From positions 68,670 through 132,669 of the IMG/VR virus record IMGVR_UViG_3300032030_000020: a stretch of DNA of 64,000 bases. One strand, 5' to 3'. Source of the DNA: a virus. Taxonomy: Duplodnaviria; Caudoviricetes. Below, piece by piece: positions 24,001 to 61,025 of this stretch; the first letter of the stretch is position 1; each line of letters starts with the position of its first letter. A program made the position numbers and the translations under genes. The notes below the pieces were generated by a model that saw only the letters and a list, made by a program, of their open reading frames with translations, had not been told where the DNA came from and did not search any database.

Positions 24001-27000
24001 TTAGTAATGGCCTCTGCAGAAAAATCTTCCGTCGCATACAAGTTGATAAGGCTACTTTGATCTTGGATTGCGTCGTGAATAGTTTTTGTCGAAGCGGCCC
24101 TTCTCGCAGACAGTAATCCTGCATTGGACTGTGTGGTTACAAATTCGTCTAACCAATCTGCAGCCTGATCAAGAATTTCATCGGGTACTTGGTCGACAGA
24201 TGTTTGATTATCAATGATATGTTGTCTCAGTTCTGGATATTGCTCTTGCAGCGAGCTTTGCACTTGAGCAGACCCTCGAGCAAGAATTGATAACAATGAA
24301 TATTTCAGATCTTTTCTGTGCTGTGGTTTATCTTCGAGTCTTCCGTTGGTCGTCATTAACGAATTAAGACTCGCATACACAGAAGGATCGATGTTTCCGT
24401 ATTCATCTATTATCTCTGTAGGAACACCACTATCATAAAACAGTGAATTAATCACATCTCGATGATATTTTAAGCTGCTGTTCGCATCTCCTAAGAACGA
24501 TGGTTTGCTGTTCATCCTTGCAAAAACAAATTCTGCCGCTTGGTTTAGAACAGGCATAGCTTCGTCTGAATCGTTGTTTGTACGCAAATAAGACAAAGCA
24601 TCATCTAAGCCGTTTTTTGACAACAATGCTTCAACGTATTTTGTAAACGGGGCCACTTCTTTATTTCCTTTGCCAATTCTATACGCTGTTAACATCGTAA
24701 ACCCAGGATCGTAAGAAAAAAGCGAAGGATCATTTGTTCCTGCAAATGCATTATATGCAGCTAACGCATTAGATTGAGCAAGCGGATCTTCGTATATTTG
24801 TTCAAAATTCTTATTGTACGAAGATTTAAACTTCAATTGAATCTGATCTCTAATTTTTTCGGATAATAATCCTTTATTGGTTTGAAGAAATTTGTCTGAA
24901 ATCGAACTTGCTTGAAGAACAATATCTTTCCACTTCGATAAGTCTGTTGTTGCCTTCGCTATTTCACCAGAAAGTTCAGGGAAAACAGATGCAAGATTCT
25001 GCAATGAATCTCTTAAACCGTTTTCGTTTTCTATGCTGTTTAGTTTCTTCCAAGCAACTCCTGCTTCTTCGACTTCTTTGATAACATCCAGTTGCTTTTT
25101 ATGTTGATCTTGCGCAGCGTCAGACATCGCGTTGTTCTGATTAAGTTTCTTCTGCGCTTCCTTAAGCGTTTTATCATCTTCTGATAACGGATTTGCAATT
25201 TGTCCAATTACAGATGAAAGATGTAAACCACCAACTAATGTAGCAACTGCAGTTAGTCCGCCCAAGAGCCATCCGATTGGACCGCTTCCTGTTGTGACGA
25301 TTGTTGCAATTGCCGCCGTAAGTCCAAGAATACCAGCTGTAATAATACTTAATCCAGAGCCTATTGATCCAGCGTTTTCGGCAGCAGTAGACAACCCTTG
25401 GAACAAAGAAGAAATGCCATCGATAACTCCAGTAACAGAACCTGCTTCTACAAGGCTCGCCACTACAGAATCAAACGAAGAACGGAATGTTTCCATTGAC
25501 GCAGACAGACTCTGCATCGCAATCTCGTACTTGCTTTGAGTAATGCCTTCAGAGTCTTTTGCCAGCCCCAAATATTTATCGAGCGTAGCTCCGCCATCTT
25601 CCGACATACCTTCCATCAATGTGGAGAATACGTTAGTCTGTCGTGTACCAGCCAAAGCATTCGTAACAATAGACTTCTGAGCATCGCTTAAGTTCTGCCA
25701 TACCTTAGACAGGTCAGACATAACTTCGTAAGCGGTTCTCATTTTGCCCGTTGTTTTGTCGTCCCACAGGTCTACACCTACAGCCTTTAATGCAGCTTCA
25801 GCATCGCTTGTGGTAGTCTTCTCGCCGTTTTGGTCTGCCGTATAGCCGGACAGGCTTAATCTCCGCATACGGGAGAACACGGTTTGAAGGGCTGTACCTA
25901 CTTGAGTACCGCTTAACTGGGTATCGGATGTACCAATTGTTAAGAGTGCAGTAAGTTCTTCGTAGGATACACCGGCAACCTTTGCAGATGCGGCCGCCTT
26001 TTGCATGCCTTTACCGATCTCGGCCGCGGTCGTAGCAGCAGAGTCACCCAATGCTACAAGCGCATCCATTGCTTCGGTGGCAGAGCCGACCAAGTCGTTC
26101 TGGAGAGCCGTAGTAATGATCTTCGTAGCTTCAGCAACGTTCAGTTTTGTAACGGTAGCAAACTTGATAATGGAGTCTGTACGTTCGGATACTTCCTGAT
26201 CGCTCAAGCCTTGACGATAGAGTGCCGCTTCGGTTGTAGCAACGTTGGAAACGGAAGTCCGAAGTCCTAACGCTTTGTTAATTGTCTGAGAACGAACAGC
26301 TTGCATGTCTGTGTCAGACTTTAACGTGATGGCTTGGATCTCGTTCATAGAAGAGTCGAACTCTTTGACAAAGCGTTTGGTTTCTTGAAGAGCCTTTTGG
26401 AAGACTTGGCGACCAAGGCGCTGGGTAAGCGCCTGAACTGATTGACCCAATGATGCAAACACGTCTCCTGCAGTGACGCTGTGTTTGCCAAGCTGTTCCA
26501 TTTCTGTGCGGGCTGCTGCTTCGGCATTCTTCAGCTCGTTCAATTTGGCTACTTCTTGATCATAACCTTCCGTGCCTTTCTTTTGCTCGACGACTCTTTC
26601 TTGATCCATGCGCATTTGTGTGGCCGTCATCAGGCGGTTCTCTTGTTGAGAAAGAGCACTTTCGTGAATAGCTAAAGCACGAGCTGCTATGCCTCGACTT
26701 CCACCGTAACGGTTACGACTAAGCTGGTCGCCCTGCCGCATAAAACGATTGTAAGAAACATCGTTGCGAATTGCTTGCATTTCTTGCTGTTCTCGAAGTG
26801 AATTATCGTATGTTTTTGCGTATGTTTCAACTGCTTTATTTAACTGTTCTTGTGTTGCACTTGGATTTATTTTAGCGTATGTTGCACCGAAATCATAAAG
26901 AGCTTTATCACGAATTACATTTGGATCTAAAGCGGTTCCGTTCATCATGGCTTCCACTCGTTTGTTGTCAAACGAAGCACCCGAATTGATCACCCGTTCA

Positions 27001-30000
27001 AGTGTTGTACCTTGAATGCTTGCAAAGGAACCAGCTTGTTTATCAATATCTGCTGCCCATGTTATTAAAGCTTGCTGAAGGAGCGCATCTTGAATTTTTT
27101 TCTCGCCGGTAACAGCATCTGTCTCCGTGGTAGCGTTAAGAATGTCTTGTGATTTTAGCTTTAAATTATTTATAACGCTTTCGACGCTACCTCCACTAAA
27201 AAGCTGATTAAGTCCAAAGTTTTCTTCCGTTTTATGTTTTTCTAATTCTTCTATCCATCCAACTTCGAATGATTTTCGATAATTGTCAATTTCAGCAACC
27301 CGTTTATCGTATTGAGATTCTGCTTTTTTAGCTGACGCCGCAAGAGTCTTCGCGTCTTTTCTTTTTTGGATCTCTTCATTTTTTATTCTTGTTTGCCACT
27401 GAAAATCTGTTTCTCCTTCACGCTGAGACTGATCATAATTTTGCATTAAATATTCATATGCTTCGTCTTCGTCTGTTAAAAATCTTCCATTTTGAACAAA
27501 CTGAGAATCGTTTTTAGCTCCGCGTAAAGCGCTAATATCCTGTTCGTATTTTCTGCGGCCCGCCTGTAATTTAGACAGCATATCGCCTTTACTGTAAAGA
27601 ATAGAATTATAGTCGTATTCTGCGGTTTTGCCCAAATTATCAATATACTCTTTTCTTAGCATAGAAAGATTAGCCATAGTTTGAATGGCTTTTCTTTGAT
27701 TAATATCAAAATCTCCAGACAACAAACTTACATCAGGAGCAGTATTCACAGTTTTTAAATACTGGTCTATTGTTTCTCTCTGCTCTAAATTGAACAAGTC
27801 GCGCAACTGATCTATATTTTGAGTGAAAGCATCAGAAGACTCAAATGAAGTATTGTGCAATTTCATACTTTGCTTATTGGCAAAACGCTGAACTTGCTGT
27901 AATGTTTCTTGATCCTTCATAAATTTGGCAACGAGATAAGATTTATCATTATCAATAAATTCGCCGTCGCCTACTTTATAGCCTGTTCTTCCTTGTAAAA
28001 CTTCTCTGTTTGTTTCACTTGTTAGGTTAGCCAAAAGTTTTTCATCCAAAACATTAGATCTATCACTAAAGAAAACATCATCTAATATCTCGTCTGGAGC
28101 ATACACAGGACGATTCGGGTCGCCTTTATCTTTTGCATCTCTTAACGGAACATTTGTTTTTAATTCGTCGTAAAACCCTGTTTTTGCAGAATGAGACAAT
28201 CTTCTCATCCCGTTATAAACTTCATCTCTAACTTCTTGTGCTTTATCTTGATTGTAACGCCAAGTAAGGATTCTTTGTTTTGGATTTTGAGCAAACATAT
28301 CAATTGCTTCAATGTTTGTTATTTTTGAATTACCCGTATCTTTATCTATAAACTGTCCAAACCATTCAAGATCTTTATCTACGGCACCATTTTGCCAATA
28401 TTGACGCCCTAACTCCTCTAGTTGTGTGGCATAGAACGCCATTTGTGCAATTGCATGCTTTTGTCCTGTTCCGCTGGATTTCCAGTCTGCGATTGTAATG
28501 TTTCCATTTTTGTCTTTCTTAATCATGTCTGGCGTGAAATACAAACCAGCTTGTCTTTCAACTGTTTGTCCGTTTGCGTCTTTTTTGTATCTTGGCATAT
28601 CAATAACTAACTGTCCATCTTGAGTCGGAACAAGCCAAACGCCATTTCCTCCTTCGGTTCGTTTGCTAATTAGCTGTTCGCCATTATCGTTATACATGAC
28701 GCCTTCGGACATAATCATGCCTTCGCCGATATGATTACGCCCTTCGTATAAAGGACCATAATAATGCTGGGCAATCTCATCCAGAGAACCATATGTTGTC
28801 TTGCCGTTAACATTACGCCGTTGACCATATGACAATTTTGCATTGAGTCGTTTTTGTGTGGCTTCGTCTGCGTGATGCGCAACGATACGACCATTTTCCA
28901 CAGAAAAAGACACTCTTGCTTGATCGCGCTCGTTTTTATGTTCATCGTCAAATAAGTAGTTTTCAAATGCTTTATACGCTTCGTTTCTTGCTTCTAAATC
29001 ATTTAAAGGATTAGCGCCTTTTCTCAGCTTACCGTATGTTTCCATAAACGTGTGAGCAGCAGAACCCAGAAAAGCATCCGCATCTATATCTGACGGAATA
29101 GTAGATCCTGTTAGAATTCTTCTTGCAATTTGCTCTCTTTGAGAAACGTGTCCTTGTTTTGTTGCATACTGCAACTCTTCAGTTTTAGGGTCAAAGCGCA
29201 TATACCCCTCTGGAGACATTTCCGATCCTGGGTGCGAAGTATCTCCACCGAAAACATCTGAATATGTTAAACCAAAAAAATCAATTGGTTTTTCCATATA
29301 TGCAGACGCATTCGACCAGTTAAAACCGGTATGTTTATATGCGGTGTGAAGCCGTTCTAACAAATATTGTCTTTGTGGATTTCCGGTTCTTCCTGTTTTG
29401 TCTCGTATTATTTCGTTAATCTGGTCTTCTTCTGCTCGCTTTCTTTCGGCTATTGCGTCTTGAGCGTTTTTCTGGAACAGAATGCGTGCAACATCACGAT
29501 CACTTTCTGAGACAAACGTGCCGTCTTTGATCGGATTGTCCCAATGCGCAAGTTCGTAGTATTTGTTAATATCGTCAAGATTGCCTTCTGTCCAACCAAG
29601 AAGCGTCTCTTGCTGAATCGCAGATCTTGCTTCGCCAAGGAGTTTGCCCATTCGTTTAGTAATCTCGCTGTTTTGATCTTTTTTATATTCGGCGTTATAT
29701 GCGTTTTGAAGCTTTGCAATCAGTTGTTCGCCTTTTTGTAAATCTTCGTTGCTAGAAATTTGGAAATTTCCAGACATTTTGTTGCCAACAAGTCCGGAAT
29801 ACCAGTCTGCTAAATCTTTTTCGGTTTGAGTTGCATTTCCAAATCTCGCTTGAATGTTGTTTGTTAAAGCTTCTCGTATGCGAGATCCATACGTCGGGTC
29901 CATATCTGCAAACATTTTTTGTGTACGCATATTTGACGTAGCTATAGCATCTATATATGTTGGCAATCCATATGCAAATATGTCCGTTGCACCAACCTTG

Positions 30001-33000
30001 TTGTTATCTTCATCGCTAAACAAAGATTGTACTAAACGCTCAATCGGCTTTCTTGTTTTTATTGCGTCGAGTGCCTTACCGGATGCTTGCGCGACTTGCA
30101 TGTCACTGTGTTTAATTAAATCAATAGCGTCGGCATATGTTTGGTTTGCGTATGCATCGACTATTCCAGCATCTTCATCGCTTAAATCTTGAGTTCTTCC
30201 GACAACTTGCCCCGCTTTGTATCCTAAACCCACGCCCCCGGTCGTAGTTTCTTGTTCAACGTTTGACGCTTCTGCGAAACTTGCACCATTTCTTGTCCCG
30301 CGCGTTTCTCCGCCTATCATTTTTTGGAGATCTTTGGCGGTTTCTCGTTCTTTCTCAATGGACTTCATGGCTTGTTGCGCATACCGATTTCTTTTCTCTG
30401 TTCTTTTTTTGAAGTCATCATCCGTTGCAAGAGCGTGGTACAACCATATAAAGTCCCCATCAAAGTCGCCAGTGTTAAGACTGTATAAGTCTTCGATGTT
30501 CATAACTGCAGCATCTGGAGACAATCCATATCTTTCTGCTGCCTTTTGCCTTCTTTGAATCGTGGCAAAGAAATTTGAACCGGCAGCATAAGGACTTCTT
30601 GTAGCGTTTGTTAAATCTTTGGTGCTTCCTCTTTGTGTAATAATTGTTCCGGTTTTTGCTTTCAGTTTTGCTGCCTCGCCTTGAGCATCGTGTCCTGTTA
30701 AATAATTTCCAACCGGATTCCATAAACTATAGGGGTTTGGTGTTGCGACAAGCATATCGGCTGGAAGCATAGCGTAGCCGCGAAGTGATTTTTCTTGCAG
30801 ATCTCTTTTTGCTCTCTGAATTTTGAATTGTATTCCACGATCAGTGTAAAGAAGGGAACTATCTTGTTGCACTCTTTTTGAATCCCTATCGTTTCCAGAA
30901 AAAAGGTAATCGATAATTCCTTCAGGAGTAGACAGTTTTTGAATTGCTTCTCGATAATTTGCTTCGGACCGTTTCATCATTTCAGGTGTGACAACAACTG
31001 AAGACATATAAGCAGGTGACCAGAATTGCTTCTTACCATAGAAACCCTCGGTATCTTTCATCAGTCGGAAACCAAAATCATATGCTGGGTTACCAGATTC
31101 ATTGAATAACTCATTTACCTGATCGGCAGTCAATGTGACAGCAGATCTGTTACTTTTAGAAGATCTGTTTTTGATCGCTGTTTTTTGATCTTCCGTTAAT
31201 CTGCTAAAGGCCGAATTGGAATTGCTCTTTGTAAGTGTTTCGGATATACTAAGAAACTCTTCCGGAGAAAGATGACTTAACGCACCTATGGATTTCACAG
31301 CGGTTTCATCGACAAGCATTTCGACGTCATCTCTCATGACGTCCACCATTCTACGATCTCGTAATTCTCTAAATTCAGCTAACTCGTCTTCTGTTAAATT
31401 GCGACGTCTATTGTTTAGCTCTTTGTATCTTGCAACTTGAGCAGCCGTTGTTCCTTGTCCAGCCATAAAAAAGTGAAGATTGTCATCGCCTTCAAACTCT
31501 TTATCTCTATAAGCGAATCCCGCATCTTCTAAGAACTTTCTCCAATCCTGATGAATTGCAAGAAATTTTGCGGGGCCCATTCTTGCCTGAACATCCTTAG
31601 AGTATGTTCTGTCATCAATTAATGCTCCGCCATCGAAACGAAATCTTTTTTCGAACTCTTGTTGCGTTTCTTTTTCGATTGCATCGTAAAACGACTTAAA
31701 ACTCACAACTGCAGCGCGCGGCGTTTTTCCTCCCAATTCCTCGATCGGAACAGAGTTTGAAAGCATTTTAGATTGATTAGAAAAATATTTTGCGTATTGT
31801 TTTACGCCTTCTTCTGAATATGGATCTATTGCCTTACCAGTTTTAGGATCTATCAGTAAATTGTTTTCGTCCGTTTCACTAAAATAAGAAAGCATTGGAA
31901 TGATCCCACGGGCTTTATCTTGCTTGATAAGAGCATCGTAGACATCTTTTCGGATCATCTTCATGCTTCCGCCGCCGGTTACGTTGGACACAGCTTTAAC
32001 ATATTCAAGATCTCCTTGATTTTCTGTACTAAGCGTTACAACGGCACCTTGATTAACTTGATCTATTAAATTTGCGTTGTCTCCGGCGAAATATGCTTTT
32101 CTTTGAGTCTTTCCTTTTAAATCTTTTTCTTCTTTGAATTTAACGTTTCCGTGCTCATCGTGTTCTCTAAAGTAATCAAGAGGCACATCGATGATCATCG
32201 GAGCGCCTTTTTTCGGAAGATTTTTTTCATCGAAGCCGTATCCAAAACTCCAATCTTCAAACTTGGCTCCGGGAGTCAATCTAATAATTCGATCTAACAG
32301 AGGGTTTCTCCCCATCGTAATCCATTCATCGTTTACGTCTTGAAATATGCCGTTTTGCTTTCTCCAATTATAATCTAATAAATGAGGATCAATATTATTC
32401 TGTCTCGGCGTTTGGACTGTAAATCGAAGTTTTCCGCCTTCATTTTGAATTGCCATACGTGGAATATTGATCATTGCAGAATTATTTAGTTTTTGAGTAA
32501 CATGTTCTTCGTCTTCGTATCGTAATCCTTGTGGGATTTGCCAGCCCTCTTTAATATATGGCATCGCGTCCGGCCTTCGATCTAACCACATTAATGTTTG
32601 AGCTTCTCTGTTTCTTTTGCTATCATTTCTCACGATAGCAGATTGATAATCAAAGTCATCAAATCTGCGGATGTATTGCGGGGCGCCTTGAGAAGCCCTT
32701 CTGGCTTTCTGAGCAACATATCCACCAAACTGATCTAATAGTGCGCCGTTGGCATCCGCAATATCGATATATTTATATTTTCCGCCGTTAACCTGTCGAA
32801 CAAGACCAGATTTGATTGCGGCTTCAAAAGCAACAGAGTTTCCTGATTCTATTTCATCTCTTATAGCGCGATAAAATTCTTCTTCCGTCGCCCTGTTGCT
32901 TGCTGGCAATTTGGGAGTTGGTTTGTCTGATTTTATTATGCGTCCACCGGACAAATAAGACGCTTTATATCTATCTGGAGCGTTATCTGTGACAATAACT

Positions 33001-33791
33001 GGCTCGTCAATAGCCGTCATACCAGAATATCTGCGGAAACCTGTTGTTACATCTCTTCTTAAATGTCTGTTGTTTGTTGTGGCTAAAGCCATTTTTAATG
33101 CGTTTTCTTGAGCGAGACGAGACGTAACACCCATCTGAGCCAACAGCTCCGTCACAGGAGAATAATCTTTCATTCCGCCTGATAAAATTGAAGAAATTAA
33201 TTGAACATCGGATTTTCTAGAATTGTCAGTCAACTGATTTTTTACAAGAATTGGATCTACTAGCGATTGAAGTTGTTTGAAATTGCTTCCTTGAAATAAC
33301 TGACCAAGCTCTTTGGTTACAGCTCCAAGACCATTCTTCCCAGTTGCAATTGCAGTAAACGTCTGTATATCAGACATATACTGATTTATGCTTTGAGCTG
33401 CAAATCTTATTTGGTTATTATATGTCTTTAAGTCAAATGAAGAAGACATCTTCTTTCCGGCTGTATCTATATATCCTGTTATATTTTGAAATGTTCTGTC
33501 TAATCCTTGGAACAAAGGAAGCATTGATTGCTGCAATGAATCCGGGATAGATGAAGCATTCTTTTTTATTTCTCCGAACACTCGATTTGCTTCATTTAGA
33601 TTTTTAAACAAATATGTATACGAAGACATTACAGAATCTTGTGATTCATCGGACACAAGAGGACTATCTATACTATCTGCCTTAATCGAAGACACAGTTT
33701 CTGAATAAGATTCTTTTATGGATTGCATTTTGCTTTGAAATTTATCTATGTTAGCGTCAATTTCAACTGTCGTAATAATTTGATTACTCAT
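12063..33791 (-). CDS. Giant tape measure polyprotein (7242 aa) with N-terminal two-barrel RNA polymerase domain and PD-(D/E)XK nuclease domain
   Basis: TP901-type tape measure core (~25500-26400), hydrophobic helices (~25220-25360), long coiled coils and C-terminal YATGGLVDFTGPAWVDG. RNAP motifs D720, R737/K742, R1065-S-P, D1109-F-D-G-D; nuclease motifs PD...ADWKS...QMAFY. Confidence 0.9.
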   Translation of the reverse strand: MSNQIITTVEIDANIDKFQSKMQSIKESYSETVSSIKADSIDSPLVSDESQDSVMSSYTYLFKNLNEANRVFGEIKKNASSIPDSLQQSMLPLFQGLDRTFQNITGYIDTAGKKMSSSFDLKTYNNQIRFAAQSINQYMSDIQTFTAIATGKNGLGAVTKELGQLFQGSNFKQLQSLVDPILVKNQLTDNSRKSDVQLISSILSGGMKDYSPVTELLAQMGVTSRLAQENALKMALATTNNRHLRRDVTTGFRRYSGMTAIDEPVIVTDNAPDRYKASYLSGGRIIKSDKPTPKLPASNRATEEEFYRAIRDEIESGNSVAFEAAIKSGLVRQVNGGKYKYIDIADANGALLDQFGGYVAQKARRASQGAPQYIRRFDDFDYQSAIVRNDSKRNREAQTLMWLDRRPDAMPYIKEGWQIPQGLRYEDEEHVTQKLNNSAMINIPRMAIQNEGGKLRFTVQTPRQNNIDPHLLDYNWRKQNGIFQDVNDEWITMGRNPLLDRIIRLTPGAKFEDWSFGYGFDEKNLPKKGAPMIIDVPLDYFREHDEHGNVKFKEEKDLKGKTQRKAYFAGDNANLIDQVNQGAVVTLSTENQGDLEYVKAVSNVTGGGSMKMIRKDVYDALIKQDKARGIIPMLSYFSETDENNLLIDPKTGKAIDPYSEEGVKQYAKYFSNQSKMLSNSVPIEELGGKTPRAAVVSFKSFYDAIEKETQQEFEKRFRFDGGALIDDRTYSKDVQARMGPAKFLAIHQDWRKFLEDAGFAYRDKEFEGDDNLHFFMAGQGTTAAQVARYKELNNRRRNLTEDELAEFRELRDRRMVDVMRDDVEMLVDETAVKSIGALSHLSPEEFLSISETLTKSNSNSAFSRLTEDQKTAIKNRSSKSNRSAVTLTADQVNELFNESGNPAYDFGFRLMKDTEGFYGKKQFWSPAYMSSVVVTPEMMKRSEANYREAIQKLSTPEGIIDYLFSGNDRDSKRVQQDSSLLYTDRGIQFKIQRAKRDLQEKSLRGYAMLPADMLVATPNPYSLWNPVGNYLTGHDAQGEAAKLKAKTGTIITQRGSTKDLTNATRSPYAAGSNFFATIQRRQKAAERYGLSPDAAVMNIEDLYSLNTGDFDGDFIWLYHALATDDDFKKRTEKRNRYAQQAMKSIEKERETAKDLQKMIGGETRGTRNGASFAEASNVEQETTTGGVGLGYKAGQVVGRTQDLSDEDAGIVDAYANQTYADAIDLIKHSDMQVAQASGKALDAIKTRKPIERLVQSLFSDEDNNKVGATDIFAYGLPTYIDAIATSNMRTQKMFADMDPTYGSRIREALTNNIQARFGNATQTEKDLADWYSGLVGNKMSGNFQISSNEDLQKGEQLIAKLQNAYNAEYKKDQNSEITKRMGKLLGEARSAIQQETLLGWTEGNLDDINKYYELAHWDNPIKDGTFVSESDRDVARILFQKNAQDAIAERKRAEEDQINEIIRDKTGRTGNPQRQYLLERLHTAYKHTGFNWSNASAYMEKPIDFFGLTYSDVFGGDTSHPGSEMSPEGYMRFDPKTEELQYATKQGHVSQREQIARRILTGSTIPSDIDADAFLGSAAHTFMETYGKLRKGANPLNDLEARNEAYKAFENYLFDDEHKNERDQARVSFSVENGRIVAHHADEATQKRLNAKLSYGQRRNVNGKTTYGSLDEIAQHYYGPLYEGRNHIGEGMIMSEGVMYNDNGEQLISKRTEGGNGVWLVPTQDGQLVIDMPRYKKDANGQTVERQAGLYFTPDMIKKDKNGNITIADWKSSGTGQKHAIAQMAFYATQLEELGRQYWQNGAVDKDLEWFGQFIDKDTGNSKITNIEAIDMFAQNPKQRILTWRYNQDKAQEVRDEVYNGMRRLSHSAKTGFYDELKTNVPLRDAKDKGDPNRPVYAPDEILDDVFFSDRSNVLDEKLLANLTSETNREVLQGRTGYKVGDGEFIDNDKSYLVAKFMKDQETLQQVQRFANKQSMKLHNTSFESSDAFTQNIDQLRDLFNLEQRETIDQYLKTVNTAPDVSLLSGDFDINQRKAIQTMANLSMLRKEYIDNLGKTAEYDYNSILYSKGDMLSKLQAGRRKYEQDISALRGAKNDSQFVQNGRFLTDEDEAYEYLMQNYDQSQREGETDFQWQTRIKNEEIQKRKDAKTLAASAKKAESQYDKRVAEIDNYRKSFEVGWIEELEKHKTEENFGLNQLFSGGSVESVINNLKLKSQDILNATTETDAVTGEKKIQDALLQQALITWAADIDKQAGSFASIQGTTLERVINSGASFDNKRVEAMMNGTALDPNVIRDKALYDFGATYAKINPSATQEQLNKAVETYAKTYDNSLREQQEMQAIRNDVSYNRFMRQGDQLSRNRYGGSRGIAARALAIHESALSQQENRLMTATQMRMDQERVVEQKKGTEGYDQEVAKLNELKNAEAAARTEMEQLGKHSVTAGDVFASLGQSVQALTQRLGRQVFQKALQETKRFVKEFDSSMNEIQAITLKSDTDMQAVRSQTINKALGLRTSVSNVATTEAALYRQGLSDQEVSERTDSIIKFATVTKLNVAEATKIITTALQNDLVGSATEAMDALVALGDSAATTAAEIGKGMQKAAASAKVAGVSYEELTALLTIGTSDTQLSGTQVGTALQTVFSRMRRLSLSGYTADQNGEKTTTSDAEAALKAVGVDLWDDKTTGKMRTAYEVMSDLSKVWQNLSDAQKSIVTNALAGTRQTNVFSTLMEGMSEDGGATLDKYLGLAKDSEGITQSKYEIAMQSLSASMETFRSSFDSVVASLVEAGSVTGVIDGISSLFQGLSTAAENAGSIGSGLSIITAGILGLTAAIATIVTTGSGPIGWLLGGLTAVATLVGGLHLSSVIGQIANPLSEDDKTLKEAQKKLNQNNAMSDAAQDQHKKQLDVIKEVEEAGVAWKKLNSIENENGLRDSLQNLASVFPELSGEIAKATTDLSKWKDIVLQASSISDKFLQTNKGLLSEKIRDQIQLKFKSSYNKNFEQIYEDPLAQSNALAAYNAFAGTNDPSLFSYDPGFTMLTAYRIGKGNKEVAPFTKYVEALLSKNGLDDALSYLRTNNDSDEAMPVLNQAAEFVFARMNSKPSFLGDANSSLKYHRDVINSLFYDSGVPTEIIDEYGNIDPSVYASLNSLMTTNGRLEDKPQHRKDLKYSLLSILARGSAQVQSSLQEQYPELRQHIIDNQTSVDQVPDEILDQAADWLDEFVTTQSNAGLLSARRAASTKTIHDAIQDQSSLINLYATEDFSAEAITKAIEAKVGKAVLNDKNGIYLEDGVPTQALIDLITGIFPEIEDVQGLENLIKEYSPEDYYGFKVGNNAFRAEDEAKRFVRNSYGKYRLSDIKQYKTNATVFQSTESLFDAARLKANEKNPYDTLRILQQGVVSGHTVDERNDYIARILGEGDLLYNLQNGIIDESQLPKEIRQLITRFDSEQTQTLKPIENYNDWQSFLTDLDNTELGATMQAYMATNPEMIAAYMSRNVNPKESLNTFKSAVANAKPGQFKTPDVMESVMNTITSSPEFIEELTTDKILEPFYKQMQSFFGGEEQLAAVFESITSGTYEGSDAQKAVNEALTKARIKKSLSTKQYLSSDVGSMAQQIMSGFTAGDFKDWTGAQAAFDFDEGDWSALESAYPSLKKFLDLTEAQRSTGEGQLIKQQAEIELSVTGLDTLEQAGEVLSGTKQLIEDLKKGGEFEIKAKIRLENEASEIQKNAAKITNGTYAEQVESMLAAGISAESIATNPGDSLKQGTDYWAEQRRQEAGRLTAMLQAGETEEANKTAAENGYTFVPAEDQEKVINHLRNDLGYFMGPDGTWYSSNPFDSNGKLLPFADGMISEYATQQYANLTKGYFVPGEDVGQVPYVNTAVGKSRPLSPYEINIAQRQLLYASTQEKWQNVYGSDPDLMKAASESFGEHGQNVLAMFNNPEVSPEELAKEQALAVQELNNNLRTQVDEYRNQLLSASQAENAFNNYALSPDEYASTIASFLPNRNEADVKQIMNGNDNKAKEALKKEIQDQIQTLLQTIANGLNIDIDPSDTSSAFETLSAALQGVDDKAAEAILQIAKMFDEFGNLTPTSTASALSDYASRYKSGRDSRNKLQQIIDAIDNGSVSTINTMLSENAGLFEGDTFADRKKSFEEWLSHQTQGVQDIFGEMAGRSQNQNFFTESDISNLRNESVFGRLTYNRDSEAYYKQFTGMLDAEGNLDVKAFKTAATEDADGFGEWAQSIEYVKDMLNESKDGVVQNGEALERFRVNALADALDAQNKFGDSTKRITDAMRKSKGTFEERTDLMTQYRKAIADANKYQNAMARLQGKKVSKEDESLFESLNFSKKKIEDAKKGNAEAVDEIYAALEKESQKYSTEAQDIGLGIIMSDTELQDAIQKQVQSYSDNLEDITIEGPGITVENGEVTYNGEALLSEFGSKMDEQTKQLIEEALASGGTATATVDGDGNIVNVSWSFSPNGGGGDGASGGGGGGGGGKSKAQKAIEDAKHALTELEHLQKIYDTKLKHAESVNDRVEFNSAFESQRQNYSQMAAVYRQNIEALEAQRAGMSETKDDYWSLTDAINGYKEALEELTNQIIELNKQRLDFIQQQQDVADSSQDRRKTVATAEKDYSALIEDYDTHRARVAELVNLRRESFAQNVPQLNEWRNELDRIQKEEGPNSQNAIDIMNKIADIEAEQFNLESEIIQEVRDLNALENEILQTELRRATEIPSGNSRLAQSGASLAEAQENYALQRQFLRDDNAFIEEQLAAKVAEADKFFARVNDAELKASDPDGWSEALESYISNAEEIDKLQIQLIENQRTIAESFVNEVTKGYEDATRAAKAYSESAVSIAEYFKTGEEFEKYRSSMRDAIKLTESLRESTAVQVAQLKEQLATMDEADPGYREIADALYQAEQQEIDYTKAIRDNTIAMQKNITEQIKLNAERQSIAPETYSSIAGSYGDMYKRNGQWDDYRKALQIQIDAAKQTKELDSEAAQQLYDRMTHTKGELPETGDPLREKQSRLEAERDARLAELNAQRDAEYAKLLEYQRRQNEIDKQRADLLANPPQMIVPDVEPVYEERETGEVRTVGRELTKEEAARRKTLQNQLHQLEAAMNGKGVQFDLWGTARATVRQLTAQSKQPGGENIHVPTVEDVAGSLGPALKKAQEEANKKRLSSMQEQYDKLKEQLDEIEATTKTEVAATETVNVAQVQAEEQARADYEAAMEEYNGQLETLASQESDLAASIEATNANIDSINADIDKTSSEFGSMIQYVTDEMGEAFFTEVESYMDAYQNLAELMKSDAQKAKEIFDKISEYQDITRQKVLFDINERNRAANGSINLANSYAGTYGKTSEYDLQAEAYATSYAQRATTIATLRDAANELYEEIMSHDEDNPWISEEVKDKAIKEYQNIIKQYSDEVSAAIQDRFNEEAARHTKITEDNNDTRRWIDQAMAVNQAAGAIYLNREDFENYRRLLGNNEVQLNKSIEARKKHIEALKEELDEYRDNPKLLRQTIDEINKEEIAILSDTKAIEENTKAIEANRMAQLDLATTRANLASTTNAQLANTYASMSQQAGDWEGYRGMLKAGNDANRTTYRNNKIEIDTLTQQLQNREITDPQQQSAAIQRLYQLITNNASLQATMESNERAINKSYLDETAMNVNLGTLRPNFLNDVYGQWASRYGSIGNYAAQRGALNQQLQASQQMVPVYEEAIKELKKQIAGLEEGSPEWQEATQRLYEYQAALQKLKISMEEAAEAIKKAVIDEIVKTYEDASRGPLHNIEKAGIYAGMYNSTMFYDLYQNMLETQMEDRKPVREAIQKEIESLQAELENTRGTSQYDRVVQEIYTRQNEYVRLEADDIQALIDIANSKVDSTLKARQKMIDSFDREIKVASMLSQYYSENKDSEMYTKAIERQKEAIKAKQEYEISEIDTLRELAKTTPENTDAFEKLEKQIYDSAMSVAEMDYELIKLDKQIKSMEIDEMLERMSRVDEMQNHRADMYTTVRTRYQNRDELTNVNTILASENEIQETRADTLRLFIEELEAELTTVAEGGDEYWRIASAIMKYEKELEETTNTVESNTKAMSENRKQILENRKAVEDMVDEEIRKRIQEERDMLAGTTSNQNQILEILRNSYRNRFELYERDLNKQKEALNEEKGLINERLQMRKKALEEERQTEELAELQRQLALISADSSRTKEAKELRKRIQELQQNRALSLAEDEANAQAEMLDDQIKSIDDNLDYQREKLDEYLEDANNFKETIDILLSGSFEDLMEWVKVNDETYKNSLDATRMEMTNSWEDTWKQMKGIVDTYFEQINEIMQSADSLLGYMTESTEYKNLSESGQELYIQNILDAYEKMRKGELDNADYEHFDDFVFRRILEELPEWWIDLLNNKVEGGSKIVPSTFEHDPNIAPNTFSDGSPYLGLTDNSLWMEAVTQFVENNTSATTGFIDSLKNAKDSKLYGEILGSQSTIESKTAERDKLLASVAGMDKGTEDYITTTNEINELGFQIEKETARKQALNEMFIEELTTQVNDSFANTSQAINLMKDIATDSLNDLTIAIGEEGTKEFENTLASLQENRTTLENFVNTLDADTKATVMNLYDNMTSNLDTESEMLNDMSTAVGERTGELAENVSNTASQASREISDTSKLLAGDLETITGNAAFDLNDNIDRKLVEEYKIEEAEKKTIDDASKQYSTDSQSLTTALGELKDKIEGIWGAEGTQTTAIEGLTGAEKDLTSLLNEFVKPGGTMDTYAKEINEYAALVSGYSGNVDTYLSAVSGYSGNVDTYLSAVSGYSGKIDTYLSAVTGVTVSMKNEISNFERYVDKKLTDVDAALKAGSMESFINGMYNTLLGRDADATGMSTWLNLGDKNKIVEGILGSDEFNSLHPEGADAFLSANGLTIAGLTGSATGSSTTTSGSSGKTSGSKSAAGKAKTNSNTGTATGMMYSYAWGAVWDPAANKYIAQPVDPSSPLAMSQDDARALAQAVNGEKVDAKNSFGKDNPTWTQQQIEGYQRMGKEEYTNTKNKFKAGESVTNDYAFVAYMHDNGDVEYSDNRNANSNLSKTIGKLTDYAIGSAQDLENLESVLNQKGVGVGDITHVGDGGTVTADTSKTYNVKNHNTGQTERLTIEKKYATGGLVDFTGPAWVDGTKIKPEAFLDSVDTKLIQSLTDTLRYVYVASPLMPPSDLIGNNSNTIGDVHVTINQAELKSDADFEDVARRVGQVFTKELTKQGFNLSNYAS
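13371..13499. repeat. 3 x 42-bp tandem repeat encoding SGYSGNVDTYLSAV in the tape measure
   Basis: AACCGCAGAAAGATATGTGTCTA unit recurs at 13371, 13413 and 13455. Confidence 0.9.
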
Positions 33792-33809: not shown

Positions 33810-33838
33810 TTGACATGTAATTGTTTTTAGACTATAGT
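33810..33838 (+). promoter_or_regulatory. Host sigma70/sigmaA-type promoter
   Basis: TTGACA-17 bp-TATAGT. Confidence 0.75.
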
Positions 33839-33874
33839 AGACATATATTAATCCTAGGAAAGGAGATCTCTGTC

Positions 33875-34231
33875 GTGGTCAATAATGGAAGCCAGTATGA
33901 TGTTTCTCTTGAGGTTGCCTGTCCTAAATGTGGCGGTCATAAATACAGGAAAGTACTTATTCCGAATGGCCCAAGAACGGAAACCGTTTTTGCTTGCAAA
34001 ACAATTTTGCCAAAACAACCTGGAGAGCTTTTACCTGATCTTTGCTCTGGTATGATTTGTTACTGTAGAACGTGTAAAAAATACTATTCAAAATCTGAGT
34101 TTTTGCGTTCTGGTAATGATTATGTATGTCGTAATTGCTATACTGTACAATTAGAATACTCTGAATATAAGCGAGCCAGTGATCATATTGGCACAGTTGT
34201 AAATTCAATAAGAAATAAATTTGGTATATAA
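33875..34231 (+). CDS. Cys-rich zinc-ribbon protein (moron 1)
   Basis: CxxC motifs; GTG start after AGGAG; opposite strand to the tail operon. Confidence 0.7.
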   Translation: MVNNGSQYDVSLEVACPKCGGHKYRKVLIPNGPRTETVFACKTILPKQPGELLPDLCSGMICYCRTCKKYYSKSEFLRSGNDYVCRNCYTVQLEYSEYKRASDHIGTVVNSIRNKFGI

Positions 34232-34283
34232 ATATCGCATAAAAGATTTCTTATAACATTTCATTCTGTTTTATTCTCCTTTG

Positions 34284-34313
34284 TTGACGATAATGTAATT
34301 TATATCGTATAAT
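34284..34313 (+). promoter_or_regulatory. Host sigma70/sigmaA-type promoter
   Basis: TTGACG-18 bp-TATAAT. Confidence 0.7.
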
Positions 34314-34344
34314 TGAATATCGATTTAAGTAGAGGAGCGATTAA

Positions 34345-34581
34345 ATGTTAGACACTGTATGGTGCACTGAATGCGGCAGCAAAAACAGTATCCGTAAGTA
34401 CGCACTCGACAACCTCTACGTATGTGCCGATTGCGGACATATTAAAGGTTACGAGTGCCCTGATTGCGACAGGTTCTACGATTATAACAATTTAGCACTC
34501 CTTGACGGTAAGTATGTATGTAAAACGTGTGGAAGAATACAGTGGGGTTATACAGAATATAAAAAAGGGGAGAGTCGTTAA
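34345..34581 (+). CDS. Cys-rich zinc-ribbon protein (moron 2, paralogue of moron 1)
   Basis: Four CxxC motifs; shares YVCxxCxxxQxxYxEYK tail with 33875-34231; GAGGAG RBS. Confidence 0.75.
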   Translation: MLDTVWCTECGSKNSIRKYALDNLYVCADCGHIKGYECPDCDRFYDYNNLALLDGKYVCKTCGRIQWGYTEYKKGESR

Positions 34582-37257: not shown

Positions 37258-39272
37258 TTACTTCTTGAAGTAAGCAGTGCTGTAAGCACCTTCGTCGTTC
37301 CGCTTCGCGTCCCAAATATGTTCAACACAGGTCGTTACTCTGTGCCCGCCTTTCGGCAGCTCTGCATCGCTGCAGAAGTTCAGACTATATCACGGACTCT
37401 TTCGAGTCCCTCTCCATTTCGGATCACTTGATCCTACTCTACTCGCTTCTTCAGGCGGCCGCCTTATGCTTTCGATAGTCGTTAGACCGTACTCCTTGCG
37501 GAGCTTGGTACGGGATTGTCTCTGTGAGATTTTCCCCGTTTAGGAGAGTTATTCGGCACTCATCGCTGAGTGGAGCCCCAGAATCGGCTAGGGCCTGCAG
37601 TTCAAAGTTGAAGGTCGCGGCACTCTTATACGACGTATCCATTCCAGGAACGGTCGTAATACGAGCACGGAACACCTTGACCACATAGTAGCCAATGATG
37701 TCAGATTCGGTACAGTCATCACCAGAGCCATAAACAGGCCAAATACAGCTAGCCTCGCCAATAGCGGACTCCTTGTTGGTGATGATAGCTTCCTGCACTT
37801 CCTTCACATACTTATACACAACATCGACGAAATCGATATCGTCATCAGCAGAGAAGGTAATGGTCTTTTCAGCGACCTTGTACTTGCCGCTAGGAACGGT
37901 TGTTTCAGTGGTTTCTTCCATGTTTGCAATGTAGATGGAACCAGCCACAGGGGTCTGAAGCAGTTCGATCGTGTGATCGGCCTTCAGATCATGACGCTCA
38001 GCGGTGTCCATCTCATAGTTCGCGTTGGCCTTGTACTCGGTCTTGTTGGCCATGGCAAACATGTCAGCATCAAACTGTGCAGACGTGAAAGACATAGTAA
38101 AAGTGGACTGTCCGGGAAGAACAGCCAGGGGGAACAGGCTCCAACCACCATTCAAATAAGCCTGTTTATTTTTGTTCAGTTAAGGTCGCTAATCTTAACC
38201 CGCTTTATTCAAGCTGCTATACGTCACCGTATAGATCAGATCATATCTTACGCAGATTCTGCGTCTCTCCATTTCGACTCGCTTGAGCCTACGTCTTGCG
38301 ACTGATCGTTAGAGTTTAACACATGAGTAAAATGATATCCTCCGGCTCGTATATTCTGTTTCATGGCTTGGTAAACAGCAGAAACAGATCTCCCAATGGC
38401 TTGTGCAGCTGCAGTCATCGTTTCGTATACGACGCCTGTTTCTACACACATGACAGAATGAGCCCTGCAGTTTTTTGAACCAACCATGTACGGACGTTTA
38501 TCGTGATAGTGATCAGATAAATTTTTCAATGAATTTGGATTGTTATGTTTGCCTTTATTGCCGTTGCTAATTTTTTGTTTATGCTCTTCTGTAAGGTGTG
38601 TGCCTGTTCTTTTCTTTGCGGAAGCTTCTATTGCTTTTGTAGGAACTTTGCCGTACAGTGGATTAAGTTCGCCCCTTAATGCACGGTTGTTATATCCGCC
38701 TTCTGCAAAATTATATCCGTATTTTCTGTCTGTTGTGTTCAAGGCTGAAATTAACAACTGTTCCATTTTAGAAGCCTCGGCTTCGGTCAAATGAGAAGCA
38801 ACAATCTCATGATCAAAATTATCCCAACCATACTTTTTTATAGCTCCGTAAAAATGCCAATTATAATTATATCCCCTTCCGTTTTTCCATCTTTCATTAG
38901 GGTTAATTCTTCTTGACATTCCAACATACATCTTGCCGTTAATCCTGTTGATATGTACATAAACATAATATGCACCGTTTTCAATAATCATTTAATCTCT
39001 CCTTCATGTGTTTTTACTACGGTAGGTTGTCTCTATTTCCCTATACGTTATTTTTCGAATGGTACAACCAAATTAGACAAATAGAGAGTTTCCCCGTTTA
39101 GAAGAGTTTAAGGACACCAATGGTGAAATTTAATGTCCGTGGTCTGGATGTCGGCACTAACTGTCGCAGAGCTCAGTTCGTTGAAGGCATAAGCCTTGCC
39201 GTCGCAACGACGGAAGATTACCTTCGGTACATCAGCAACATACCCTTTAAGGGCAGCATTGAAAGTAGCCAT
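37258..39272 (-). CDS. Major tail (tube) protein, spliced: join(39272..39132, 38152..37590, 37312..37258), 252 aa
   Basis: Exons join in frame (141+563+55=759 nt): ...QTTDI|NGGWSLFP...ELQAL|DAKRNDEGAYSTAYFKK; sits between neck genes and chaperones. Confidence 0.85.
37313..37589 (-). ncRNA. Group I intron 2 of major tail gene (277 nt, no endonuclease ORF)
   Basis: 5' exon ends in U; P1 GGCCCU/GGGGCU with U.G pair; AAACGGGGAAA...AAUCCCGU (P4); AACGACUA and GAUAUAGUC (P7); ends in omega-G. Confidence 0.88.
38248..38991 (-). CDS. Intron-encoded GIY-YIG homing endonuclease with NUMOD3/NUMOD1-like DNA-binding motifs
   Basis: YVYVHINRINGKMYVG...RW...E...GYN; HLTEEHKQKIS; CVETGVVYETMTAAAQAIG. Confidence 0.9.
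   Translation of the reverse strand: MIIENGAYYVYVHINRINGKMYVGMSRRINPNERWKNGRGYNYNWHFYGAIKKYGWDNFDHEIVASHLTEAEASKMEQLLISALNTTDRKYGYNFAEGGYNNRALRGELNPLYGKVPTKAIEASAKKRTGTHLTEEHKQKISNGNKGKHNNPNSLKNLSDHYHDKRPYMVGSKNCRAHSVMCVETGVVYETMTAAAQAIGRSVSAVYQAMKQNIRAGGYHFTHVLNSNDQSQDVGSSESKWRDAESA
39036..39061 (-). promoter_or_regulatory. Candidate phage late promoter inside intron 1, upstream of the endonuclease ORF
   Basis: Minus strand CATTCGAAAAATAACGTATAGGGAAA. Confidence 0.7.
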
Positions 39273-42652: not shown

Positions 42653-43657
42653 TTAAGCGATCTCGTGCGCACCGGCGGTCGGATACTTGCCAACCACGAA
42701 AGCCGCGCCAAACCACGTATACAGCAGAACCTCAGTGACACGGTCGTCAATGTTCTGGGAAGCCATAGAATTGATGCCGCCCTCGTTGACGATCTTCAGG
42801 TTCCGCATTTCGGCGGACTGTCCACCCGGAATGATGTAAATCCAGTCAGGATTCAGCACAGGGGTAATGCCGTCAGCCTTGTAAGCGTTGGTCATACCGA
42901 CAACGTCAGCGCCCTTCCACTTACCAAGGTAGCCATTGCCATTGTGCTCGTCCAGCATATTGCCGGAGTACGCCCAGGTAGGATTGCTGTTGATCTGCAT
43001 CCCCGCAGAAGCATCCAGCTGACCCACAGCCGCAATGTCGCCAAGCAGCGTCACAGGGCCCTGCCGACGGAAATGGATAACCTGCTGTTCGAGCAGAGCG
43101 GGGTTGAAGCCACCCGTGCTCTTGGCATACCAAGGAGTCTTGTTCACATTCTGGAAACCAGCCTGCAGAACGTTCTCGACGATCTCCAGCTTCTTCTCCA
43201 GAATCTTCGCATTCGCTTCGCGAATCAGGTCGGCCATGTTGAAACGGCCAGCCTTCAGATCAACGATGTTGATAGCCGGACGAGCGGAGATTTCCTTCGT
43301 CCCAACCAGCAGCTGGTGATCCGTAATGTAGCTACGGGCAGTGGTAGCGCCCTTCGCCTGCACATAAGCATGGATGCCATCCGTGCGGACTTTGAAGGCG
43401 GCCTTTTCGCCGTAACCGACGTTCTTCTCATCGGCAACAGCGCTGAGGAAGTCCAGAGCCTTGTTCTGAAGCTCTTCAACGGTGAACGCAACAATCTGTC
43501 CGATCTTGTGGCAATTCTGAGGATTCAGATCCTCCAGAAGCTCAGAGATCAGGCTGTTCGCCTTTTCGATCTGATCGGTGTCCACGCGTTCATTCTGATT
43601 CTGTGCGGCAAAAATCTTAATCAGCTTAGTGCCGCGTTCAATCTTAATATCAGCCAT
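42653..43657 (-). CDS. Major capsid protein
   Basis: 334 aa; strongly biased codons; follows protease and decoration genes; GGAGG RBS. Confidence 0.8.
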   Translation of the reverse strand: MADIKIERGTKLIKIFAAQNQNERVDTDQIEKANSLISELLEDLNPQNCHKIGQIVAFTVEELQNKALDFLSAVADEKNVGYGEKAAFKVRTDGIHAYVQAKGATTARSYITDHQLLVGTKEISARPAINIVDLKAGRFNMADLIREANAKILEKKLEIVENVLQAGFQNVNKTPWYAKSTGGFNPALLEQQVIHFRRQGPVTLLGDIAAVGQLDASAGMQINSNPTWAYSGNMLDEHNGNGYLGKWKGADVVGMTNAYKADGITPVLNPDWIYIIPGGQSAEMRNLKIVNEGGINSMASQNIDDRVTEVLLYTWFGAAFVVGKYPTAGAHEIA

Positions 43658-46156: not shown

Positions 46157-47707
46157 TTAACCGGTATCACCCATTGAGCCGTCTTCGTTGCTCGGCTTTG
46201 GCTGTTTACCGGTTTCAGACTTCTCTGGATCAGATGTTCTTTCTGTCTCATCGAGTTCTGGTCTGCCTGCTTCGTTGTTCTCTGTTGTTTCTGTCTTTGT
46301 TCTATCGACAAGGATTGCATCCGTATCTTCAGCTTCTTCTTTACGCTGTTCGACTTCCTTATCAAGCGAGTATCCGTAGGCGTCCAGTAAGGACTTGGTA
46401 GAGACAACGCCCTTTGTCCACAGCTCTTTGCAAGCTTCGCGTAAAGCTTTTTTGCCGGACATATCAAGGGGTTGGAATCTGAATTCGGGAATCTCTTTTA
46501 GGTTGTAGGTACCAGGAATGACTTCTGTCAATCTTTCGTTGACCCGGTTCATCAGTTCGCAGAACTTTTCTCTTGCGTCGTTGATTCTTGCTTCAGCCGT
46601 CTGCATAGAAATCTGAGCAGAAGCAAAGGTAGATCCGTCCTGAGACACGCCGCTGACGATAATGCCGCTGACACCGCCTGCTGAAAGGATGTCATTGTTG
46701 ACGTCGCGATATTTGTCCCATTGATAAAGATCGTCCACATCGGCCTGTACAAACTTAGACTCCGCAAGATGGTTGGTAACAACCAATGGGAATTTGGACA
46801 TGCCGTTTCTGAAGATGTTTGCCAGTTGTCTTAACTGGTTGGCATCTGGCAGCATATCCTGTCCTTTGGTGGAATCGCCGTACTGGACATGTACAAATCC
46901 ACGGGTAGCCAGATTGAGTGTGGCCTTCTCGTAGTTTGAGATAAGTTCTTTCTTTGCTAAAGGCTCAAGGCAAGCCGCAATAAACGGAATAGAGTATCTG
47001 TTCCAACTCTCCTTGTTGCCCTGCATAACGAAAGTGTTTTCCGGGTTCAGCTGCGCATACTGGGAGCCATTGTTCAAAGCTTCCTTTACTTCGTCAGGAT
47101 AACCTTTAAAATATGATTCTAAATCGTTATCCTTGATCCAGTTTTCGCGTATGGAATAACCCTTGGCCTTCCATTCATTCTGAATGGACTGGCAGTCAAA
47201 ATCCACTAAAGGCATACCGTTCAACGCCATATTGCCGATAACACATTTGTGAATCGGTAGAGTAATTAACTGGCCGTTGAATAAGTAGCATACAACATTG
47301 TAGTATTTCCAGTATTCCAACATAATACCGTTGATCTTCTCTCTCAGCCGCATTCTCTTGTACTGATCTTCGTACAGCTTGACGGTCTTCTCGTTCTTGC
47401 CGATAAGAAGCCAGTCAGAACACGTAGAGAAGGGAACGAATACATGATGGACAATGCCCTTAACAATCGGGTCTTTGTCTGTGTAGTAGTCGGATAACTG
47501 ATAAAGACTGACAATGTTGTTTTGTTTGTCTCTTAAGATTCGGTCGTAGTCATAGCCGGAAAGTTCTCCGCTAAAGGTAATATTGGAGTTGGTGTAGCTT
47601 TGATACGCATCCATGTCATTCTTTGTTGCGCCTACGACATCTATTCGACGAGAGGCTTTCGGTGCCTCTACAGGCTTGGTTCTTCTGAACCTGTCAAAGA
47701 AACCCAA
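46157..47707 (-). CDS. Portal protein
   Basis: 516 aa directly after terminase; C-terminal GRP...KPS tail. Confidence 0.8.
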   Translation of the reverse strand: MGFFDRFRRTKPVEAPKASRRIDVVGATKNDMDAYQSYTNSNITFSGELSGYDYDRILRDKQNNIVSLYQLSDYYTDKDPIVKGIVHHVFVPFSTCSDWLLIGKNEKTVKLYEDQYKRMRLREKINGIMLEYWKYYNVVCYLFNGQLITLPIHKCVIGNMALNGMPLVDFDCQSIQNEWKAKGYSIRENWIKDNDLESYFKGYPDEVKEALNNGSQYAQLNPENTFVMQGNKESWNRYSIPFIAACLEPLAKKELISNYEKATLNLATRGFVHVQYGDSTKGQDMLPDANQLRQLANIFRNGMSKFPLVVTNHLAESKFVQADVDDLYQWDKYRDVNNDILSAGGVSGIIVSGVSQDGSTFASAQISMQTAEARINDAREKFCELMNRVNERLTEVIPGTYNLKEIPEFRFQPLDMSGKKALREACKELWTKGVVSTKSLLDAYGYSLDKEVEQRKEEAEDTDAILVDRTKTETTENNEAGRPELDETERTSDPEKSETGKQPKPSNEDGSMGDTG

Positions 47708-50629: not shown

Positions 50630-50706
50630 AAAAAATCACTCCTTCAAAATACGAACATTAATCGGAATTTTTTAAAAAATGTTCGGTAAAAAATTTTTGG
50701 GGGTTC

Positions 50707-50732
50707 TTTCCCCTTACGTGTATTTTCGAATG
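50707..50732 (-). promoter_or_regulatory. Candidate phage late promoter heading the morphogenesis operon
   Basis: Minus strand CATTCGAAAATACACGTAAGGGGAAA. Confidence 0.7.
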
Positions 50733-51371: not shown

Positions 51372-51486
51372 TGGCCTGATTTTTTTATTTTTATGCGGAC
51401 TATCCCGCTCAGTAGTCCGTTACAAAATTATATGAGCAGTTGCGGTTTGATCAGCCGCAACACAGCGCGAAGGAGGCGCAAAAACA

Positions 51487-61023: not shown

Positions 61024-61025
61024 AA

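Follow-up and report, generated by a model that had tools for sequence, protein, structure and literature searches.

The stretch analysed here, called the window below, is the right-hand 64 kb (positions 68,670 to 132,669) of a linear virus record of 132,669 bp (IMG/VR record IMGVR_UViG_3300032030_000020), which comes from an uncultured phage and has an estimated completeness of 99%. The phage is an SPbeta-like siphovirus of the ruminant gut with a genome of 132.7 kb. Its giant tape measure protein (TMP) carries near the N-terminus a predicted two-barrel RNA polymerase (RNAP), followed by a predicted nuclease. We consider it probable that both enzymes are cargo of the TMP, that the injected polymerase transcribes a gene cassette at positions 50969–59297, and that a YonO-like enzyme then takes over. 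A TMP-fused virion polymerase is not new in kind; the one described here is a sequence-unrelated variant with an extra nuclease and a candidate cognate DNA signal. The parts of the giant TMP open reading frame (ORF) are given below (positions are those of the window; residues are counted in amino acids, aa):

12063–33791, minus strand: giant TMP ORF of 7,242 aa (P0001), without an internal stop under translation table 11
32472–33791, minus strand: conserved N-terminal segment (aa 1–440), with the alignment to every giant homologue starting at residue 1
29442–32471, minus strand: two-barrel (double-psi beta-barrel, DPBB) RNAP module (aa ~440–1450), predicted from an AlphaFold2 model and structure matches
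31566–31637, minus strand: DPBB-B motifs FDGG (aa 719–722) and QARMGPAK (aa 735–742), with F, D, G, G, Q, R, M, G, A and K invariant in 13 homologues and located on beta strands of the model
30453–30602, minus strand: DPBB-A motifs TRSP (aa 1064–1067) and LNTGDFDGD (aa 1105–1113), the putative metal-binding loop, invariant in 13 homologues and located on strand and loop elements of the model
30108–30128, minus strand: AIDLIKH (aa 1222–1228), with D1224 and K1227 invariant, in the long helices after DPBB-A of the model
28182–29084, minus strand: RecB/Cas4-like PD-(D/E)xK nuclease domain (aa ~1570–1870), predicted from motifs, AlphaFold2 and Foldseek
25647–26273, minus strand: TMP core PF10145 (PhageMin_Tail; aa 2507–2715), with Pfam E = 1.3e-29 and matches to twelve PHROG TMP families (best E = 1e-30)
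25197–25370, minus strand: the sole strongly hydrophobic (membrane-type) segment (aa 2808–2865) in a Kyte–Doolittle scan of the whole protein

The giant ORF is a tape measure protein of the PF10145 type, because it contains PF10145, matches the twelve PHROG TMP families, lies next to the Dit gene and has a single hydrophobic segment. A DUF4214 domain was detected by Pfam close to its C-terminus. The earlier note on this DNA had named a hidden stop as a possible objection, and all 7,242 codons are open under table 11. It had also placed the polymerase at the N-terminus of the TMP. The polymerase does lie near the N-terminus but not at the extreme end: its core starts at aa ~440–490, after the conserved segment. 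This segment (aa 1–440) has no Pfam or PHROG match, and its neighbours in the protein atlas are TMP N-termini with scores below 0.9, a lead at most. The proposed enzymatic cargo is located near the N-terminus, within ~1,870 residues, where the polymerase (aa ~440–1450) is followed by the nuclease (aa ~1570–1870).

The polymerase motifs are F719-D720-G-G, Q735-A-R737-M-G-P-A-K742, T1064-R1065-S-P and L1105-N-T-G-D1109-F-D-G-D1113. The DFDGD signature (D1109 to D1113) is encoded by nucleotides (nt) 30453–30467 and is the only D-x-D-G-D in 7,242 residues. A free 930-aa polymerase of the same phage contains the series D280, R298, K303, R512-S-P and D554-Y-D-G-D. The spacings in the TMP and in the free enzyme are 17 vs 18 residues from D to R, 5 vs 5 from R to K, and 44 vs 42 from R to D. 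These residues, spacings and nucleotide positions agree exactly with those reported in the earlier note for both proteins. The AIDLIKH sequence (1222–1228) is an additional shared motif, the counterpart of LIDAAKHG (644–651) in the free polymerase. When the N-terminus of the TMP was compared with the free polymerase by BLASTP, the block from TRSP to DFDGD was aligned with E = 8e-4.

Alignment of the first 1,800 residues in 13 homologues at 27–45% identity revealed 127 invariant positions. The motif residues F719-D-G-G, Q735, R737, M, G, A741 and K742, T1064-R-S-P-Y-A, and L1105-N-T-G-D-F-D-G-D1113 are invariant in all 13. The invariance of the four motifs at such low identity indicates that the series exceeds chance. 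DFDGD is retained even in two distant relatives with apparent TAG recoding (L006 and L007).

A copy of the catalytic loop was noted elsewhere in the window:

62555–62998, plus strand: small ORF with a hydrophobic N-terminal stretch and an exact 9-residue copy of LNTGDFDGD at 62882–62908

The copy differs from the TMP loop in 6 of 27 bases, all of them silent third positions. In three contigs of relatives (L012, L014 and L015), the 10 kb that follow the polymerase gene contain no counterpart of this small ORF.

The AlphaFold2 model of aa 400–1450, built on a 13-row alignment, has a mean predicted local distance difference test score (pLDDT) of 72.7 and a predicted template modelling score of 0.68; the confidence exceeds 80 across most of aa ~690–1430. 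In the Foldseek search against the PDB, the first 27 rows are all two-barrel RNAPs. They include QDE-1 (E = 4e-6), the free polymerases gp62/gp64 of the P23-45 group (9e-4 to 3e-3), gp66 of the phi14:2 phage (1.4e-2), gp96 (4e-2) and RDR2. The top 17 rows of VIA-align are likewise all two-barrel RNAPs, with Z-scores of 10.8 for RDR2 (485 residues, root-mean-square deviation 5.0), 8.3 for QDE-1, 7.2 for gp64-type enzymes and 6.9 for gp96; the first unrelated chain (Z 5.5) matches only the C-terminal helices. The top BFVD neighbours are gut-phage proteins annotated as 'RdRP' (E = 1.5e-12 and 1e-9), which stand ahead of P23-45 gp64. Thus, the two-barrel fold that the earlier note expected for aa ~400–1450 was recovered: the model matches QDE-1, RDR2, gp64, gp66 and gp96, as well as the 'RdRP' phage proteins. 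On the model, it is not in doubt that the predicted fold of aa ~440–1450 is a two-barrel RNAP of the YonO/QDE-1/RDR type in a single chain. The connector between the barrels, from K742 to R1065, is 323 aa long and mostly confidently folded in the model.

Sequence searches failed to identify this region. Residues 1–1500 have no Pfam match (E ≤ 0.1) and no PHROG match; the polymerase module remains below the threshold of PF05183 (Pfam RdRP), with no match at E ≤ 0.1. Neither phmmer (E ≤ 10) nor a five-sequence profile revealed an RNAP among PDB sequences. Titin was the only PDB sequence match (E = 0.017) and was rejected as a chance hit.

In the nuclease domain, the GxxxH, D, DxK and QxxxY motifs are represented by G1576, H1580, D1755, D1769, K1771, Q1783 and Y1787, which are invariant in 11 sequences. 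No Pfam match was found for this domain. Its AlphaFold2 model has a pLDDT of 75–92, and the best Foldseek matches are the nuclease domains of RecB, AddAB, AdnAB, the Cas4-family protein ACE1 and Exo5 (E 9e-3 to 0.1, probability ≤ 0.97), weak but consistent. As modelled, two enzymes precede the ruler part of the TMP: the polymerase and the predicted nuclease.

The fusion was found in related phages, where the earlier note had suggested looking for it. Ten giant homologues of 4,989–6,777 aa, all with PF10145, share the N-terminal module at 30–42% identity, and, from residue 1 onwards, the first 1,700 aa can be aligned with giant PF10145 proteins at 27–39% identity; most giant homologues entered the alignments as whole proteins. 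The polymerase–TMP family is rare, since HMMER, run exhaustively against 1.8 billion representatives, gave only 14 proteins. In IMG/VR, a single-sequence scan gave no match and an alignment-based scan gave two loci.

Four loci were considered as candidates for a split polymerase gene, and all were rejected. Two relatives from the Joint Genome Institute (JGI; L003 and L004) each have a single frameshift inside a conserved block of the giant gene. These frameshifts (L003:15020–15090 and L004:9840–9900) are assembly errors or pseudogenes and not splits at domain boundaries. In L006 and L007, the polymerase and the later TMP pieces lie in one frame interrupted by TAG codons only: at least eight in-frame TAGs occur in L006:1644–10768 and at least five in L007:8912–22498. 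The latter locus has four TAGs after the polymerase start, followed by TAA, and one further TAG upstream. This suggests that the late genes of both phages are TAG-recoded and that the giant gene would be read as a single ORF of ~4,500 aa. As judged from these sequences, the fusion is a conserved state across deep divergence and a genetic-code change, and it is apparent in at least 12 relatives.

Besides the fused polymerase, the phage encodes a free one, located in a short cassette with a repeated DNA element:

55979–58771, plus strand: free YonO-family RNAP of 930 aa (P0002), with PF05183 E = 3e-7 and phrog_8308 E = 1e-73
50969–59297, plus strand: 13 composite elements, each a GC-rich hairpin and TTTTTTTATTTT(N)A(C/T)G, over 8.3 kb that contain small genes and the YonO-like gene

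The free polymerase shows 26% identity (tblastn, E = 2e-33) to the yonO locus of the SPbeta group and has at least 161 homologues, many of them on contigs of ~130 kb. It is presumed to be a non-virion polymerase. The array of elements adjoins the head of the late operon and is divergent from it. In each of the 13 elements, the T-rich core is preceded by a hairpin of variable sequence (−9 to −19 kcal/mol). A scan of the whole genome gave 15 copies of this core on the plus strand, 13 of them within the array, and five on the minus strand. The same hairpin and T7ATTTT element, with different stems, is conserved in a relative taken to bear the fusion (L012), where it flanks small genes on either side of the polymerase gene; L012 comes from a contig of 122,370 bp, the length of the longest contig that carries the fused TMP P0007. 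A shorter contig, L013, has the same polymerase as L012. Two syntenic relatives (L014 and L015) have no copies of the element in 22 kb; no fused TMP appeared among the database search results for their contigs, in which the TMP genes themselves were not inspected. The 13 hairpin and T7ATTTT elements would mark an early cassette and are candidate polymerase-specific promoter and/or terminator signals.

Another repeated unit was noted just after the last hairpin element:

59315–59387 and 60566–60604, plus strand: tandem GC-rich units GCGGCCCC followed by a T-run

The GCGGCCCC units with their T-run may be a second kind of signal.

Delivery of the polymerase through the tail at infection is the best explanation of these findings, because an RNAP with intact motifs is an integral and conserved part of the tape measure ORF. 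By analogy with gp96 of the Thermus phage P23-45, and from the general biology of TMPs, the TMP would be ejected through the tail at infection, and its hydrophobic segment would contribute to a channel. The N-terminal polymerase would leave last, beside the DNA end, and may transcribe the first DNA to enter. Its target would be the 8.3-kb plus-strand cassette (50969–59297), with the elements acting as promoters and/or terminators. The cassette would also yield the YonO-like enzyme, to which later transcription would pass, so that the two polymerases would form a cascade. If the scaling of P23-45 holds, the tail would be ~0.85–1.15 micrometres long.

Several points weigh against this scheme. 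The global TM-scores of the model to known RNAPs are low (0.25–0.37), as expected for a multi-domain model, and the pLDDT is below 50 at 163 residues. By its model the polymerase probably has a clamp, and storage of a folded module of ~1,000 aa in the tail tube, or its passage through the tube, is hard to explain. The presence of the polymerase in virions, its catalytic activity and the use of promoters are predictions here. The correlation between the presence or absence of the elements and of the fusion is provisional, and the hairpins with T-runs could be plain intrinsic terminators.

Other explanations of the fused ORF can also be considered. We attach next to no weight to an assembly or sequencing artefact that joined two genes. 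The sequence is a single metagenome-assembled record, and goat- and sheep-gut runs gave only contig pieces of 150–390 nt, none across domain junctions, which are neutral on continuity. However, the architecture is equally continuous in at least ten homologues that were assembled independently, the base composition is even along the giant ORF, and the pieces from other studies contain no indels. One metatranscriptome run gave a few identical pieces, which are not a sign of expression. A relic without catalytic function, retained in the tape measure only for structure or assembly, is a very improbable account of the polymerase fold. The failure of Pfam RdRP to recognise the region fits such a relic; on the other hand, the metal-binding aspartates, the R and K of DPBB-B, TRSP and the D/K helix motif are all invariant, while their surroundings are at 27% identity.

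Two further explanations seem unlikely, and about equally so. The polymerase, with or without the nuclease, might be cleaved from the TMP precursor during tail assembly and act in the producing cell, for instance by making late transcripts or by processing the genome before it is packaged, instead of being injected. Several TMPs are processed during assembly, the low-confidence stretches of the model after the polymerase (aa ~1433–1566) could be flexible linkers, and the module is large relative to the tail lumen. Yet the phage already has a free polymerase of the YonO type, which makes the late transcripts of SPbeta; in the one tested case, P23-45, the fused polymerase is found in virions; and retention of the fusion across 27–45% identity and a genetic-code change is most simply read as co-delivery. 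Alternatively, the module might be injected without being an early transcriptase. Together with the RecB-like nuclease, it might synthesize primers or RNA of other kinds on incoming DNA that is nicked or single-stranded, and so serve to prime replication, to process genome ends or to counter host defence. Among solved structures, RDR2 and QDE-1 have the nearest folds, QDE-1 is described as having RNA- and DNA-dependent activity (PMC9508822), and the nuclease is fused beside the polymerase in all homologues. But the early cassette, with its private repeated signal and second polymerase gene, mirrors the pre-early unit of P23-45, which argues against this alternative.

The gene order around the giant ORF is that of a siphovirus. 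The late operon on the minus strand includes terminase, portal, major capsid and tail genes, the 7,242-codon ORF, Dit, a 1,744-aa tail protein and fibre genes:

47726–49372, minus strand: large terminase, late operon
46157–47707, minus strand: portal, late operon
42653–43657, minus strand: major capsid, late operon
10876–11940, minus strand: Dit, directly downstream of the giant TMP ORF and followed by the 1,744-aa tail protein

In relatives, genes adjoining the TMP encode the SPbeta-type structural families YonB, YomU (YomU_Tube), YomX (YomX_C) and YomG (YOMG_N). The DNA of the phage is also present in sheep- and goat-gut metagenomes of several studies. Relatives were not found among 50,697 GenBank phage records, nor in GTDB species genomes, which give no clue to the host. 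The G+C content is 0.50–0.57 in the plus-strand early region (50000–64000) vs 0.38–0.47 in the late operon. Two more features were noted near the TMP gene:

38248–38991, minus strand: homing-endonuclease gene within the tail-gene block (PHROG 314, E = 1.5e-36; weaker matches include the GIY-YIG family phrog_5123)
33821–34581, plus strand: two Cys-rich, zinc-ribbon-like small ORFs in the gap of ~880 bp from the upstream tail gene to the TMP start

Relatives have several GIY-YIG/NUMOD genes in the same tail-gene block.

The closest functional precedent is gp96 of the Thermus phage P23-45, a TMP-fused virion RNAP (PDB 8H2M/8H2N; Chaban et al. 2024, PMC10770324). The fusion was shown by biochemistry, chromatin immunoprecipitation sequencing (ChIP-seq) and crystal structures. 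The protein is present in virions and active in vitro; it occupies a 9-kb pre-early region, in which a second, non-virion polymerase (gp64) is encoded and ~14 copies of an AT-rich motif occur, whereas fusion-less relatives are without the motif (PMC10770324). The earlier note knew of no described TMP–RNAP fusion, and this statement was mistaken, since gp96 is one and is accompanied by a second, non-virion RNAP. Its structural and functional reading of a virion-delivered polymerase fused to the TMP holds computationally; its claim of novelty does not. No described TMP–RNAP fusion besides that of P23-45 was found in full-text searches, and a survey of two-polymerase phages lists no case of YonO plus a TMP fusion (PMC10770324). 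The gp96 family in GenBank is limited to ten Thermus phage records; the group also includes P74-26, G20c and TSP4.

The similarity of the two systems is considerable. In both, a giant TMP (5,002 aa in P23-45 vs 7,242 aa here) has a DFDGD two-barrel RNAP in its N-terminal part, after a non-core N-terminal segment, and a second, free two-barrel RNAP is encoded in a short cassette with a repeated T/A-rich motif. Both phages are siphoviruses with an extremely long tail, predicted here and given as 800 nm for the 5,002-aa TMP of P23-45. Like the pre-early unit of P23-45, the 13 copies of the element are confined to 8.3 kb, which include the YonO-like gene. The differences can be noted as well. The TMP described here contains PF10145 and no M23 domain, whereas gp96 contains Peptidase_M23 and no PF10145, and the RecB-like nuclease is an addition. 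While the structure of gp96 is flat and clampless with a short disordered connector (PMC10770324), the long folded connector of the model suggests that the polymerase of the gut phage differs in this respect. The partner polymerase is of the YonO type here and of the gp64 type in P23-45, and an SPbeta-like phage of the mesophilic ruminant gut is compared with Thermus/Oshimavirus.

No sequence similarity to gp96 was detected by phmmer or a profile against the PDB or by tblastn against 50,697 phage records. When family alignments were compared by hhalign, P was 0.33 for the three-member gp96 family and 0.66 for gp64, with a probability of 90 in the positive control (gp96 to gp64); hhalign of a shallow profile against the single sequences of gp96, gp64 and P0002 was uninformative. 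The best cross-family signal was obtained with the YonO family (hhalign P = 0.002, in the DPBB-A region), a weak link. The simplest reading of these sequences, though not proven, would be that the fusion originated independently of P23-45 or is extremely old.

YonO of the Bacillus prophage SPbeta and the phage members of PF05183 are, like the TMP module, single-chain two-barrel RNAPs with D-[FY]-DGD, RSP and the D..K helix motif. Unlike it, YonO is a free protein of ~800–930 aa and not a virion component, and both the connector and the N-terminus are longer in the TMP module. The closest solved folds, QDE-1 and RDR2 (Z 8.3–10.8, ~485 aligned residues), share the motif series DG.G / Q.R..G.K / R.P / D.DGD; however, both belong to cells, where they work on RNA or single-stranded DNA in silencing, and they have no virion context and show only 8–12% identity. 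The crAss-like phi14:2 gp66 and the N4 virion RNAP are virion-packaged polymerases that are ejected and transcribe early genes without depending on the host. The two-barrel enzyme gp66 forms part of a very large protein, and N4 uses hairpin promoters. The fold match to gp66 is weak (Z 4.4, Foldseek E = 0.014), and gp66 is not part of the tape measure; the N4 enzyme is T7-like and not two-barrel.

An extended scenario can be proposed tentatively, with the balance somewhat against it: the fusion arose independently within the SPbeta-like lineage, when the tape measure acquired a YonO-related polymerase and, with it, a RecB-like nuclease, giving an injected cargo of two enzymes, and the elements are private structure-dependent promoters with an N4-like logic, so that no host factor would be needed for early expression. 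If the fusion did originate independently, delivery of a polymerase by the tape measure would be a recurrent, convergent solution and not an oddity of one thermophilic phage. The only experimentally studied TMP-fused polymerase belongs to one small group of Thermus phages, and if SPbeta-like gut phages have a counterpart unrelated to it in sequence, injection of a polymerase via the tail would have evolved more than once. The mechanical question of how a probably clamp-bearing polymerase travels in or through a tail that may be ~1 micrometre long is raised by the comparison with the clampless gp96. At the same time, this case links the YonO system to virion-delivered transcription and offers a candidate promoter/terminator element.

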